From positions 71,429 to 135,428 of the forward strand of contig CAWBOU010000047.1 of assembly GCA_963790365.1 (NCBI GenBank): 64,000 nt of DNA. Reading direction: 5' to 3'. The notes under the pieces are model-generated. The model made no database searches, was not told where the DNA came from, and saw only the letters and a program-made list of their open reading frames with translations. This DNA is from an uncultured delta proteobacterium. GTDB lineage: Bacteria; Desulfobacterota; Binatia; JACPRU01. The position numbers were made by a program, and so were the translations under genes. This document shows, piece by piece, positions 37,917 to 42,956 of the stretch (the first letter of the stretch is position 1; every line of letters starts with the position of its first letter).

Positions 37917-39027
37917 TTACCCCGTATGGCACTCGGCGCACTTCGTCGGGCCGCCGTCCTTCTTATGACAATCGATGCATTGCGTGTGGTACGCGTCCTC
38001 GAAGCTCGGGCAGGCCTTGTTCTTCTTCCCCACCGTCGCGCCGTTGCACTCGTTCGCGGTGTGGCAGCCCGAGGAAGAGCACGAGTACGAGGGCACCGCC
38101 CCGCCCTTCGCCTTCACCGGGTGATGACACGTCTCGCACTTGATCGAGTAGTCTTCCCAATGCGCCTTGTGCGTGAACGGCGTGGCCGGCCGCTTCTTCG
38201 CGGTGCCGGCGATCGGCTCGAGGTTCACGTTGTCGGGCCCGTTGCCGGCCGGCTTCTTCGCCGGTGCCGCCTTCGGCTGCGGCGGCCGGCTTCGCGGCGG
38301 GCGCCTTCGTGCCGCCCTCCGCGGCCGGTGCCTTCGCAACTTCCGTCTTCTTGTCGGCGGGAGCGGCCTTGGCCGGCGCCGGCTTCGCCGCGGGATCCGC
38401 GAGCCGCGCGGTCTCGACCCAGCCCTCGATCGCGCCGCCGTCGATCACCTGCGTGCGGACGCGCGACCAACCCTCGCGATCCTCCAGCACCTCGACGTCG
38501 GTGCGGCCCTGGAACTCGCCGAGCACCGCGCCACTCGGCGACGAGGCGAGCTCGGTGCCGCGCGCGGCGACCGCGCGGCGTGCGAGCCGGATCGGCGTCG
38601 GCTCGGCGACGGGCGCGGGCTTGTCGGCGACCGCGGCGGGCGGCTCCGGCTTCGGCTCGTCGACCACGACGGTCTTGCCTGCGGCCTCGTCCTTCGGCTC
38701 GGCGGCCGGCGCCGCCGGCTCGGTCTTCGGCGGCGCCGCCTTGGCGACTTCCTTCGGCGCCGCTTTCCCGTCGGCGCTTTCCTTCGCCGCGGCGCTCTCC
38801 TTTGCCTCGTCCTTGGCAGCCGAGTCTTTCGCCGGCTTCTCCTTGCCGGGCTTCGGCGTGTGCGCCGAGAGCGCGGCGCCGACCCGCGTCGCGGCCTTCG
38901 GCGTCTTCAGCCGAGTTTCGACGATCGGCGTGCGCCCCGCCGCGCCGCTTTCCTGGTCGCGCCCGCACGCAACCAGCACGAGAAGCGCAAGCCCGACCGA
39001 AACACCCGCTCGTCGAAGGCCGCTCAT
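37917..39027 (-). pseudogene. lipoprotein: bacterial SH3-like domain + Ala/Pro/Lys linker + tetrahaem cytochrome c3-like domain (one frame change near 38285)
   Basis: ATG 39027 after GGGAGAG (ATGA overlap with the upstream stop). [21 protein letters not shown] lipobox; ..LGEFQGRTDVEVLEDREGWSRVRT..GWVETARL. After the shift: FTHKAHWEDYSIKCETCHH, CSSSGCH, CIDCH, CAECH. Confidence 0.75.
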
Positions 39028-42000
39028 TCGCTCTCCCGCAGGCGAACGCCGGGCGCTTCGCGGAGCCTCACGCCCGGCCCCTCGCGCAGCTTGATGCCGG
39101 GCGCCTCGCGGAGCTTGATCCCGGGCTGCTCGATCACCGGCTGGCCGCGACGAACGCGCTCGACGCCTTCCGGCGGCGGCGCGGCCTCCGCGGCGACCGT
39201 CTGGAACGTGAGCTCCTTGCCGTCGTCGGGCGCGAAGTCCGTGACGGTGTAGAGCTCGCCGTTGCGCACGTAGAGCCGTCGCATCTCGTCCGCCGTGAAC
39301 GGGCGGCCGCCGCGGCGGCCGAAGACGGCGACCTGGTTGCCGGTCTCGTCGACCGCGCGATCGCGGTCGAGGCCCTTCGAGAGCGCGATCGCCGGGCCGT
39401 GCGTCGGGAACGATGGCGATCAAGTGCGGCTGCGGCCTCGGGCTGAAGCCGAAGTGCCCGGAGCTTCCCGTCGGCGACGTGAGCTGCAGCACGCGGAGGC
39501 CGTTCTTGCCGTCCGCGACGTAGGCGAAGAGGCTCGCGTTCGTCATGCCGACTGCGGACGCGCGCGCGTCGTTCATCTCGCCGCCCGCGTCGAACGTCTC
39601 GACGAGCTTCGGCGTCATCGGCTTCTCGACGTCGACGATCGCGATGCCCTGCGCGCCCGCTGCGACGTACGCGTACGTGCGCGCCACGTAGACGTCGTTC
39701 GCCGCGGCGATCGGCACCTTCGCGTCGGGCACAACGACCGGTTTGTCATGCTCGGTGATGTCGAGGACCTTGAGGCCCTCGGCGTCGGCGACGAACGCGT
39801 AGCGGAACTGGCGATCGATCGCCCGCGGCTTGACGATCGCGGGCGCGCCGATCTCGGCGGTCACGCGGGGATGGAGCGGATCGTCGAGGTCGACGACGAC
39901 GAGCCCGCGGTCGCAGAGCACGTAGGCGTACGTGCCGGTGATCGCGACGTTGCCGCGCCGTCGAGGACGCCGCCCGGGTTGAACGTCAGCGGCGCGCTCG
40001 AGGAAGTTGTTCGCGGGATTGCCGTCGAGCAGCGTCGCGGCGTGCACGAGGATCAAGCCCTCCTCGCGGTCGGTCACGTAGAGGTAGCGCGTAGAGCGGA
40101 TGGATCGGCTGCTCCTCGTTCTCGGCGAGCCGGTCCGCGCGGGATCGACCGCGAGCGTCGCCGGCGCCGCGACCGAGGTCGCGTCCTTCGTCTTCACGTA
40201 GAGGCGCTGCCCGAGCGGCGAGACGGGCGCCGTGGTGATGCGCTCCGAGAACGCCCTTGTTGTCGATGTTGGCGACGTCGTAGACGCGAAGGCCGCCCGG
40301 CCCGTTCGCCGCGTAGAGGTACTCGCCGCGCAGCTGCAGGCTCTGCACCTCGTCACCGCGGCCGCACAGCCAGGAGACTCGAGGATGTCGTTGCCGGGGT
40401 GCTCGATGACCTCGTCGAGCTCGCGATCGCGCTCGACGTGGCGGCGGTATCGCATCGGGATAGGCGAGCGGTGGAGCTGGCTGCCGATCACCGCCTGCGG
40501 CTCGTCGCCCTCGGTGACCGCCACCGCCTCGAGCCCTTCGTCCTCCGAGCCCGACGTACGCGAAGCGGCCGAAGAAGTTCACGAAGCTGCGTGCCGTGGA
40601 GCAGCAGCTGCGCCATCCACGCGTTGTTGTCGCCTCGGTCGGAGACGTGGCAGTCCGTGCAGACCTTCGTCTCCGTGCGCGCGCACGGTGTGCGGCACGT
40701 GCGTGTTGAACGCCTGGCCGGTGAAGCCCTCCGCGGAGATCGTCTGCTGCTGCGAGTAGAACCACTCGCGGTTCTGCGTTCTGCGAGCTCACGAGCACGC
40801 GCGCTCGACGAGCGCACCGGCGAGATCCGGCTGCCCGCGGCGGTGCCGTCGCTGCCGAGCATGAAGACGTCGTCGCGCAGCACCTGGAAGTTGTAGCCGG
40901 TCCAGTTGCGGAGCTTCTCGCCCTCGTTGTGGAGAGTTCGTGCGGCGGTTCGCCTGCTGCGAGCAGATGGCAGCCGAAGCAGCTCGTCATCCACGAGGTG
41001 TGGCACGTGAAGCAGGTCATCTTGTCGTCGCCGTGCGCGAGCGCGCTCGCGTCGTCCGGCACGTCGCCCCACGTCTTGCCGTCTCTGCGGATGGTCTTCG
41101 CGAGGCGCGAGGCCTCGTTGTAGTGCGCGCTCGCGGGATCCACGGTGTCGCGCGTCTGCACGACTTCCCACTCGACGTTCGGCGTCACCGCCGAGCGCTG
41201 GAAGAGCTTGGCGCCCTTCTTGAAGAACGCGCTCGCCGAACGCCGTGCGGTTGTACTTCTTCAGCGGATTTCCGCCCGCGGGCCCGCGGGTCTTCCAGTC
41301 GCGCGCCGTCGGATCGGCGAGCGCGGAGATCGAGCCGTGGCAGTCGATGCACTGGATCTCGATCGCGTTCCGCACCTCGCCGTAGAGCTTGCCGTCGCCG
41401 TGCGCGTCCTGCTCGAAGTGGCAGTCGACGCAGTGCATCCCCTTCTCGAGGTGGATGTCCTTGAGATGCACGGCCTTCTTGAAGCGCTCGGGATCGTCCC
41501 ACGGGATCGTCTTGCCGCGCGCGTCGAGCAGGTTGCCCTTGCGATCCTGCTTGTAGACGTTCCGGAAGATCCAGCCGTGGCCGTGGAAGTCGGCGAACTG
41601 CGTCTTCGTGAGCTTCGGGTTCAGATCCGTCAGGTTCGCGAGGAACTCCGGCGTCGGACCAAGGCCGCGGAGCGCCGCGCGGCCTCGGGTTCGCCGTCTC
41701 GAGCGTCGACGCTGCTCGCTCGCGGCGAGCGCCTCTTCGGCTCGCGCTGATACGAAGCGCTCGCCGTCGGTCTCGTTGTCCCACCAGGTCGTGCCGTAAT
41801 ACGTGTTCACGACGTTCGTGCCCGGATGCATGTGGCAGACGACGCACTGGCTCGACGGGATCGCGCTCGTGAACTGTGCCGGATCGGGTGGCCGGGCTCG
41901 TCCTTCGGGATCGTCGGGTCGACCGTCGCCGTCTGGCCGCGGTTGCCGAACTGGGCCCACGGGCCGGAGTGCACCGGGTCGCGATCGTTCGCGTAGACGA

Positions 42001-42956
42001 CGTGGCAGCCGGTGCAGCCGCTCGAGCGGTAGTCGCCGGGGTGATCGTTCGTGCCGAGCATGTGGAGGATCGGGTCGAGCAGACGCGTCTTCTGCAGGCC
42101 GAAGAAGACCGGGTCCGTGCGATTCGCCGTGCCGAGGCCGCGCTGGCTGAGTCGCCGCTCGGGCGCCCCGGAGGATCCGGCTCGAGCACGTTGATGTTGC
42201 CGATCTCGAGGGCTTCCGCCCGCCGCGCTCGAAGAAGCGGAGGATGTTGCCGGGCTGGCTGATCTCCCACCGCGCGAGCGGCGCGAGGAACGGCAGGATC
42301 CCGCGCTTTTTCGTCGCCTCCGCGTCGGGCGCATCTTTGGCGACGAGCGCCTGCGGCTTGCCGTCGCGGCCGTAGCTCTCGCCGAAGCGCGGGTCCTTCA
42401 CCGGGATCGAGCCGTTGTTGTAGAGCGCCGCGCCCCAGAGGCTCGCCCCGTGGGTCATCATGCTCGTCTTCACGCGCGCGACCTGATCCGCGTGACATCC
42501 GTCGAGCCCGCACGTGCGGTCCGCGACGCGGAGATCCCCGGGGTTCATGAACTGTACGAACTCGGGGCTCTCCTTCAGGAACGCCGCGTTCGAGCGGACG
42601 GGGTTCGCGCTCGTCTTGAAGACGTCCGCCTGAAGCGGCGCGACGTGGGCGGTCTCCTTGTCCTTGGCGCCGATGGTCCCCCCGTGACAGTCGACGCACG
42701 CGAGCGGGATGTCCGCCTCGTGCATCGACGCCGAGTCCGTCGAGGTGTGACAGGAGACGCAGCCCTCGTTCTTGCGCGTGACGTCGTCCGACGATTGGCT
42801 CATCAGGTCGACGGTCGGCGCCTTCGCGGTCTCCGCCGCGGCGGGGGTGTCCGCGCTCGCAGGCTCCGGCGCCTCGTCGGCGGTCGTCGCCACCGGCGCG
42901 ACGATCAGAAAGAGCGCGAGGAGAGTGCGCGACAGGGGGAAAGTTCTTCTTACCAC
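39024..42956 (-). pseudogene. about 1300-codon multihaem cytochrome c fused to an LVIVD-repeat beta-propeller, read through at least a dozen frame changes (or assembly indels)
   Basis: Signal MVRRTFPLSRTLLALFLIVAPVA. Haem sites CVSCH, CVDCH, CGLDGCH, CTGCH, CVVCH, CVDCH, CIDCH, CFTCH, CFGCH, CTDCH. Then, with no stop, [84 protein letters not shown]. C-terminus has 4x PG(I/V)(K/R)LRE. Confidence 0.7.

Follow-up and report, generated by a model that had tools for sequence, protein, structure and literature searches.

Is a gene whose reading frame breaks again and again a gene that its organism has lost, or a gene that has been badly read? This question is raised by a minus-strand locus of an uncultured delta proteobacterium (GTDB lineage Bacteria; Desulfobacterota; Binatia; JACPRU01), where a multihaem c-type cytochrome appears to run on into a beta-propeller of LVIVD-type repeats. 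The locus lies in a stretch of 64,000 nucleotides (nt), hereafter the window, which comprises positions 71,429 to 135,428 of the forward strand of contig CAWBOU010000047.1 (NCBI GenBank assembly GCA_963790365.1). In the original prediction, made from the letters of the window, the product was taken for an unusual extracellular redox protein, read through at least a dozen frame changes and either inactivated or mis-assembled. According to the analysis below, the locus is very probably one functional-looking gene, and its roughly 26 frame-breaking insertions and deletions (indels) are errors of the deposited sequence, which come from a poorly called or polished patch. The confidence placed in this answer is a joint one, that is, it covers the reality of an exported cytochrome-propeller gene, the technical origin of the indels and a presumed role in electron transfer at the cell envelope.

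First of all, the locus reads as a single coherent gene on the minus strand, which runs from 42956 to 39024 and, once frame-corrected, encodes a product of about 1,300 amino acids (aa). Since the G+C content of the window is about 69%, the G+C content at the third codon position (GC3) is a sharp indicator of the coding frame. In the GC3 frame plot and in a seven-state GC3 hidden Markov model (HMM), it stays at 0.9–0.97 throughout the gene while the frame that carries it keeps changing, and none of the frame segments is terminated by a stop codon. With the frame label f defined as (42956 − coordinate) mod 3, the peptides quoted earlier were all recovered from the minus strand, in the separate frames that had been implied: CTDCH in f0 (40661–40647), a 14-letter peptide in f1 reaching 40544, DEGLEAVAVTEGDEPQ in f2, GEYLYAANG in f1 (40327–40301) and the later (Y/F)A(Y/F)V..G repeats in f2 (40083–39499). 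The first three switches, f0→f2→f1→f0, are those described before (the open reading frame (ORF) frames 42956, 42699 and 42334, then back), and each behaves as −1, since they correspond to one-base deletions at 42210, 42160 and 41875 against L085, a contig of a related bacterium. The count of at least a dozen changes was right as to their being many, but it was an undercount, for nucleotide alignments locate 25 sites from 42210 to 39413, with about 26 inserted or deleted bases among them.

The frames can be joined by homology as well. Frameshift-aware dynamic-programming alignment, run end to end, matched the Rokubacteria protein of the locus L004 with 20 frame events and the protein P0121 (residues 1–1284, 74% identity) with 22 frame events, with no in-frame stop in either case; measured as a sequence match, the agreement with P0121 over 1284 aa is far beyond chance. 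The homologues span every proposed frame join, and these alignments agree that the haem array continues into the LVIVD propeller with no stop between them. Two distant homologues, L001 and L002, also align across several of the joins, and in one of them the last haem motif is followed directly by the LVIVD part within an ORF of 885 aa.

Moreover, the intact counterpart of the gene is easy to find. Relatives were met in at least 569 stretches of species-representative genomes, and the frame-corrected product gave at least 7,922 matches in the protein database, the top one with 75% identity over 100% of the query. The best 120 of these matches are all single proteins of 1,112–1,381 aa with the PF08309 domain, and 47 of the fetched genome loci carry a single stop-to-stop ORF of 1,170–1,445 aa with 8–10 CXXCH motifs. 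Judged from these sequences, the haem-propeller fusion is real, is always encoded as a single ORF and is the architecture that a very large, uncharacterised family shows without exception. That is to say, the fusion is common to the whole family and is not special to the window's copy, which contradicts its description as unusual. With haem part and propeller in one collinear ORF and a barrel gene immediately upstream, the gene appears to be an ordinary new member of this large, catalogued and uncharacterised family of multihaem cytochrome–LVIVD fusions. The family is uncurated: it has no curated model and no solved structure, and no paper specific to the haem-propeller fusion was found in the library searched.

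As for the architecture of the product, it opens with a predicted signal peptide, followed by nine CXXCH motifs and a CX4CH motif, CGLDGCH, which is probably a tenth, non-canonical haem site. In an alignment of 72 homologues, the Cys and His residues of the motifs hardly vary or do not vary at all. With nine CXXCH motifs, the CX4CH motif and the signal peptide, the product is classed as a multihaem c-type cytochrome, with covalently attached haem predicted; the haem part gives weak Pfam matches to Cytochrom_c3_2 and Paired_CXXCH. The C-terminal third passes the threshold of the LVIVD family PF08309 (E 3.9e-18, 64.9 bits against a gathering cut-off of 20.2). Its fold was assessed on the AlphaFold model of a homologue, P0184 (1,183 aa), not on the window's protein itself; this model has a predicted local distance difference test score (pLDDT) of 76 and a predicted template modelling score (pTM) of 0.83, and its all-beta C-terminal domain, largely above pLDDT 90, matches generic 7–8-bladed propellers in Foldseek (E about 1e-7 to 1e-8), so that a propeller fold is likewise predicted here. 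The frame-corrected product also contains a conserved DRDRAVDE segment, and its tail of four tandem PG(I/V)(K/R)LRE repeats could be a sorting or anchoring signal.

The nature of the breaks was examined mainly by comparison with L085, a 4.5-kb contig of a Candidatus Binatia metagenome-assembled genome (MAG), which encodes a 92%-identical homologue of the 587-aa barrel protein upstream and runs on into the first 582 cytochrome codons as an open frame. The nucleotide alignment, with 88.7% identity overall, covers no more than 1.75 kb of the cytochrome gene, counted from its start (42956–41210). Over the 2.7 kb of the two upstream genes, gaps occur only in multiples of three, and between 42855 and 42211 there are no gaps at all; in the next 1 kb of the cytochrome gene, 11 isolated frame-breaking indels follow one another (42210 to 41228). 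The events from 40963 to 39413 were placed through the P0121 protein alignment, three-frame views and the nucleotide alignment with L083, a locus encoding a 75%-identical protein. Since the L083 alignment (84% identity) contains many compensating gap pairs, its gaps were relied on only where they were unpaired and matched the protein-level alignment. Insertions (about 17) outnumber deletions (9), every event being 1–2 nt long; most lie outside homopolymer runs, and several are found within GCGC-type contexts. One further frame change, between 38292 and 38253, breaks the downstream lipoprotein gene. Some 750 nt of the cytochrome gene precede the damaged patch, which runs on into the following gene as far as about 38270.

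The rival explanation that survives best is that of a genuine pseudogene, in which the organism inactivated its cytochrome gene and the indels are real mutations. It draws on an ORF broken about 25 times within 2.8 kb, on the intactness of the immediate upstream neighbours and on the fact that respiratory accessory genes are commonly dispensable. However, about 26 natural indels should be accompanied by substitutions on the order of a hundred or more, and the frame-corrected product differs at only 3 of the 259 columns that are invariant in a 48-sequence alignment of the family, where intact orthologues differ at 0–33. All three differences fall within 41753–41653, the zone hardest to resolve, where a first alignment took wrong frames and the frames of L085 restore the conserved N-P-E and W-S-D residues; that is to say, 256–259 of the 259 invariant residues are retained, with no in-frame stop. 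The bias towards the third codon position is that of intact genes. Against L085, differences at codon positions 1, 2 and 3 amount to 4.6%, 4.6% and 19.6% inside the patch, to 5.2%, 5.7% and 25% in the clean part of the cytochrome gene, and to 5.7%, 2.8% and 18.8% in the intact barrel gene. In addition, the excess of insertions and the position of most events outside homopolymers are unlike the natural indel spectrum of bacteria, which is biased towards deletions and centred on repeats. Neither relaxed selection, lost invariant residues and in-frame stops nor a confinement of the damage to the gene was found when these marks of a pseudogene were looked for.

Damage of the same kind occurs elsewhere in the window, in housekeeping genes unrelated to the cytochrome. 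The acyl-CoA (isovaleryl-type) dehydrogenase gene (7989–9189, plus strand) shows about 5 frame switches, gnd (6-phosphogluconate dehydrogenase, 18739→17175, minus strand) shows 2, and pgi (glucose-6-phosphate isomerase, 34475–36095, plus strand) at least 7; in zwf (glucose-6-phosphate dehydrogenase, 20940→~19400, minus strand) a homologue is aligned over frames −2, −3, −1, −2 and −3. On the other hand, pgl, between gnd and zwf, is clean, and no unexplained frame switch was met at 22–34 kb or at 43–64 kb of the window, the latter including a 3.7-kb ORF. Broken housekeeping genes beside clean stretches point to a patchy sequence quality across the record. Since substitution decay is absent, the signature of purifying selection is unchanged, gene boundaries are ignored and housekeeping genes are hit, the frame breaks are read as a low-quality sequence patch. 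Of the two fates once proposed for the gene, sequence or assembly error is thus favoured, and inactivation is disfavoured to the point of being improbable. On the favoured reading, the patch from 42210 to about 38270 would have been poorly called or polished while the rest of the assembly is good, and the indels would not be mutations of the organism.

More improbable still is a chimeric or mixed-strain consensus, in which reads of related strains or of a collapsed repeat were merged and left spurious indels. The nearest relatives are all MAGs, the homologues on the long-read MAG contigs L001 and L002 are likewise fragmented, and the errors are patchy, as such a consensus would have it; it is, however, a sub-case of the technical explanation rather than a biological alternative. 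Identity to L085, counted over substitutions, is 90.4% inside the patch and 88.1–90.9% outside it, so that this comparison gives no hint of a foreign or mosaic segment; no repeat search was made on the region. Programmed recoding, by which ribosomal frameshifting or transcriptional slippage would read through the frame changes, has only the absence of stops in the stitched reading in its favour and is effectively refuted by the intact orthologues, its probability being close to nil: it would require about 25 sites, which share no common slippery motif and none of which is conserved, all relatives, L085 (89% identity) and L083 (75%) among them, being uninterrupted there.

Two further ideas were rejected. 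A search with the N-terminal 249 aa gave 120 matches, all of at most 434 aa, which suggested a truncation of the whole family by selenocysteine or a programmed shift; it was given up because the genome loci and the full-length query give intact proteins of 1,200–1,400 aa, and the short matches reflect candidate ranking plus fragments. The fragmentation of L001 and L002 was also considered as conserved frame shifts and is taken as noise of those assemblies. On these two contigs the cytochrome homologues (L001 8001–11746 and L002 8001–12030) are split into 2 and 5 called genes, respectively, with out-of-frame tails. A cytochrome gene of this length is easily fragmented by noisy assemblies, and the short fragments then populate protein databases.

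Table 1. Features of the cytochrome-propeller locus and its neighbours, in window coordinates (f, frame as defined in the text).
Feature	Position	Strand	Basis or remark
Whole gene, predicted decahaem cytochrome–LVIVD propeller	39024..42956	−	Alignments to L004, P0121, L083, L085; GC3 plot and HMM
Putative signal peptide MVRRTFPLSRTLLALFLIVAPVATTA	42879..42956	−	Read from sequence; cleavage site predicted
Haem-binding region	40647..42761	−	Motif coordinates; 72-sequence family alignment
Nine CXXCH motifs (first bases)	42761, 42698, 42016, 41846, 41432, 41351, 41014, 40981, 40661	−	
CX4CH motif CGLDGCH	42512-42492	−	Cys, Gly, His invariant in family
Seven LVIVD-type repeats, predicted beta-propeller, C-terminal third	39499..40564	−	Pfam PF08309 and repeat coordinates
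C-terminal tail, four tandem PG(I/V)(K/R)LRE repeats	39033..39125	−	Similar tail in 75%-identical P0121
In-frame blocks 1–4	f0 42956-42211; f2 42209-42161; f1 42159-41876; f0 41874-41754	−	
Zone not resolved into blocks, 7 events	41753-41653	−	
In-frame blocks after this zone	f0 41652-41229; f1 41227-40964; f2 40962-40936; f0 40933-40800	−	
In-frame blocks, continued	f1 40798-40778; f2 40776-40680; f0 40678-40587; f1 40585-40545; f2 40543-40379	−	
In-frame blocks, continued	f1 40377-40257; f2 40255-40134; f1 40132-40089; f2 40087-39990	−	
In-frame blocks, last	f0 39988-39953; f2 39951-39414; f0 39412-39024	−	
Indel-dense patch, probably of low quality	38253..42210		L085 alignment for 42210-41228; L083/P0121 alignments for the rest
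One-base deletions against intact relatives	42210, 42160, 41875, 41661, 40935, 40934, 40378, 40133, 39952		
Insertions, upstream part	41753(G), 41736(2 nt), 41713(A), 41706(A), 41679(C), 41653(C), 41228(G)		
Insertions, rest	40963(C), 40799(C), 40777(G), 40679(C), 40586(C), 40544(A), 40256(G), 40088(G), 39989(C), 39413(T)		
AlgE-like outer-membrane beta-barrel, intact, 587 aa	42950..44713	−	Overlaps cytochrome start
HbpS-like (PF03928) protein, intact, 541 aa	44716..46341	−	Pfam E 1.5e-17
Downstream lipoprotein	37917..39027	−	Lipobox LVAC, SH3-like domain, Ala/Pro/Lys linker, class III cytochrome c domain

The genes around the cytochrome form a recognisable group. In 71 of 82 loci the barrel gene directly precedes the cytochrome gene, whose GTG start in the window overlaps the stop codon of the barrel gene; the two are read as conserved partners, coupled in translation. 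The barrel protein belongs to no Pfam family; its AlphaFold model (pLDDT 79, pTM 0.79) has about 18–20 long strands, and in Foldseek the top match is the alginate exporter AlgE (E 3e-16), followed by Occ/OprD porins. A homologue of the HbpS-like protein is found within the fetched flanks in 39 of the 82 loci, at the same position in L083 and L085. Downstream, the ATG of the lipoprotein overlaps the cytochrome stop (ATGA), and the protein matches Pfam Cytochrom_CIII with E 5.3e-10. It is broken by the one frame change at about 38270, with tblastn matches in two frames, while its L083 orthologue is one intact ORF of 331 aa with SH3_3 and Cytochrom_CIII; an SH3/cytochrome c3 lipoprotein follows the cytochrome gene in the closest relatives. 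In L083 the gene order is identical, and every gene is intact.

Several other features of the window were recorded. An intact ORF of 1,246 aa (46463–50203, minus strand) has an unusual domain combination, namely three FHA domains, cytochrome c7/c3-type haem motifs, a 4Fe-4S dicluster and a pyridine-nucleotide-disulphide oxidoreductase domain, and partial relatives of it occur in only 5 of the 82 loci. A 538-aa protein (51250–52866, minus strand) has homologues of about 30% identity less than 10 kb from the cytochrome gene in 40 of the 82 loci and may be part of the functional cluster of the cytochrome. In L084 (positions 1–5990), a 72%-identical relative, gnd, pgl, zwf and tal-pgi directly adjoin the HbpS/barrel/cytochrome cluster; in the window the same pentose-phosphate genes lie 18–25 kb from it. 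A 1.6-kb stretch (20279–21866) is called non-coding by the GC3 HMM, and at 21077–21604 a minus-strand ORF of 175 aa is found, whose N-terminus is signal-like and in which the motif DRRGDRI(D/E) recurs. Scans with Rfam and for tRNA genes gave zero hits in the window.

What the protein does can be approached from this setting. The exported decahaem-propeller protein is encoded together with an outer-membrane barrel and small cytochromes; since it directly follows an AlgE-like barrel gene in most of the loci counted above, a role in an envelope electron-transfer module is the best guess and, on genomic context, the most likely one. In such a module the cytochrome would be made together with the AlgE-like barrel, the HbpS-like protein and the SH3/cytochrome c3 lipoprotein, the haem chain would relay electrons, and at the outer membrane, or close to it, the propeller would bind a substrate or partner; the propeller may be a binding platform or a catalytic site. 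An extracellular location, as claimed for the protein, goes further than the evidence, which consists of a signal peptide and of an outer-membrane barrel gene next to the cytochrome gene.

Several points weigh against the answer given at the outset. The error origin of the indels is deduced from comparison rather than observed in reads, and no genome of more than 95% identity with the locus intact was found, the closest being 89% identical in DNA over the first 1.75 kb only. In the protein database, likewise, no relative exceeds 92% identity for the barrel or 75% for the cytochrome. Patchy errors call for an extra cause, for example uneven coverage, low-pass Sanger reads or the filling of gaps with raw long reads. 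Had a real pseudogene acquired its indels in a very recent burst, its substitution pattern would be identical. The haem domain gave no informative match in the PDB sequence search, in NCBIfam or in Foldseek of the full P0184 model, and the functional model is drawn by analogy. Moreover, the AlgE-like barrel, with about 18–20 modelled strands, is probably too small to sheath a cytochrome; MtrB, which sheaths one, is larger, with 26 strands.

In terms of annotation, the gene should be recorded as one cytochrome-propeller protein with sequence errors, and its annotation as a pseudogene, a case of recoding or a dozen small ORFs is unwarranted; the acyl-CoA dehydrogenase, pgi, zwf and gnd genes of the same record call for the like caution. 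The interest of the family is independent of the window's copy, whose sole peculiarity, the frame breaks, is most likely non-biological. With thousands of members and a conserved barrel partner, the family is a reasonable target for work on electron transfer in uncultured soil bacteria. It is a tentative idea, on the doubtful side, that the decahaem-propeller protein and the AlgE-like barrel constitute a class of outer-membrane redox module not described before, which is widespread among phyla of soil and sediment (Acidobacteriota, Binatia, Rokubacteria/Methylomirabilota and Planctomycetota) and in which electrons would pass between a haem wire and a substrate or partner that the propeller holds at the cell surface. 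If that were true, the window would be one more, badly sequenced, example.

Among known proteins, the closest counterparts are those labelled 'LVIVD repeat / multiheme c-type cytochrome' in MAGs of Binatia, Rokubacteria/Methylomirabilota, Acidobacteriota and Planctomycetota (for example P0121, P0124, L004 and L085), which have the same length, order of haem motifs and seven-repeat propeller, with 58–75% identity over at least 85% of the length. These uncharacterised relatives have the same upstream barrel gene, and in the closest of them the whole gene order is the same; they are single ORFs, and the window's copy differs only by its roughly 25 broken sites.

The porin-cytochrome conduits (MtrAB/MtrC of Shewanella; OmaB/OmbB/OmcB and the Ext clusters of Geobacter) likewise have a co-oriented barrel gene beside an exported multihaem cytochrome, with further small cytochromes in the cluster, as here. 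Homology to MtrA/MtrB/MtrC, OmaB/OmbB or Ext proteins was looked for and not found: the cytochrome has a local match of 79.8 bits to ExtM (cut-off 800) and of 19.6 bits to the DmsE-family decahaem proteins (cut-off 192), it falls below threshold for the MtrC/MtrF domain, and the barrel reaches 17.7 bits for DESULF_POR1. The window's barrel also differs from MtrB in resembling AlgE or Occ porins. Unlike the window's cytochrome, the Mtr, Oma/Omb/Omc and Ext systems have, to our knowledge, no propeller domain. The putative porin–multihaem cytochrome clusters proposed for Verrucomicrobia (PMC5615132) have an analogous layout.

A c-type haem domain covalently joined to a beta-propeller is also found in the cytochrome cd1 nitrite reductase (NirS) and other haem-c/beta-propeller enzymes. 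The cd1 structures 1aof, 1hj5 and 1aom are among the Foldseek propeller matches, with a template modelling score normalised to the query of about 0.2 and 9% identity, so that the likeness is a generic one. NirS has one haem c against the ten predicted here, and the repeats here are of LVIVD type; no genes for d1 biosynthesis were met among those examined in the cluster.

Finally, the LVIVD-repeat surface proteins of Methanosarcina and bacteria have their repeat type in common with the window's protein, which passes the PF08309 threshold. We know of no haem domain in these proteins. They have been described as cell-surface proteins (Adindla et al. 2004, PMC2447325). In contrast to them, the LVIVD repeats of the window's protein make up the C-terminal third of a predicted decahaem cytochrome.

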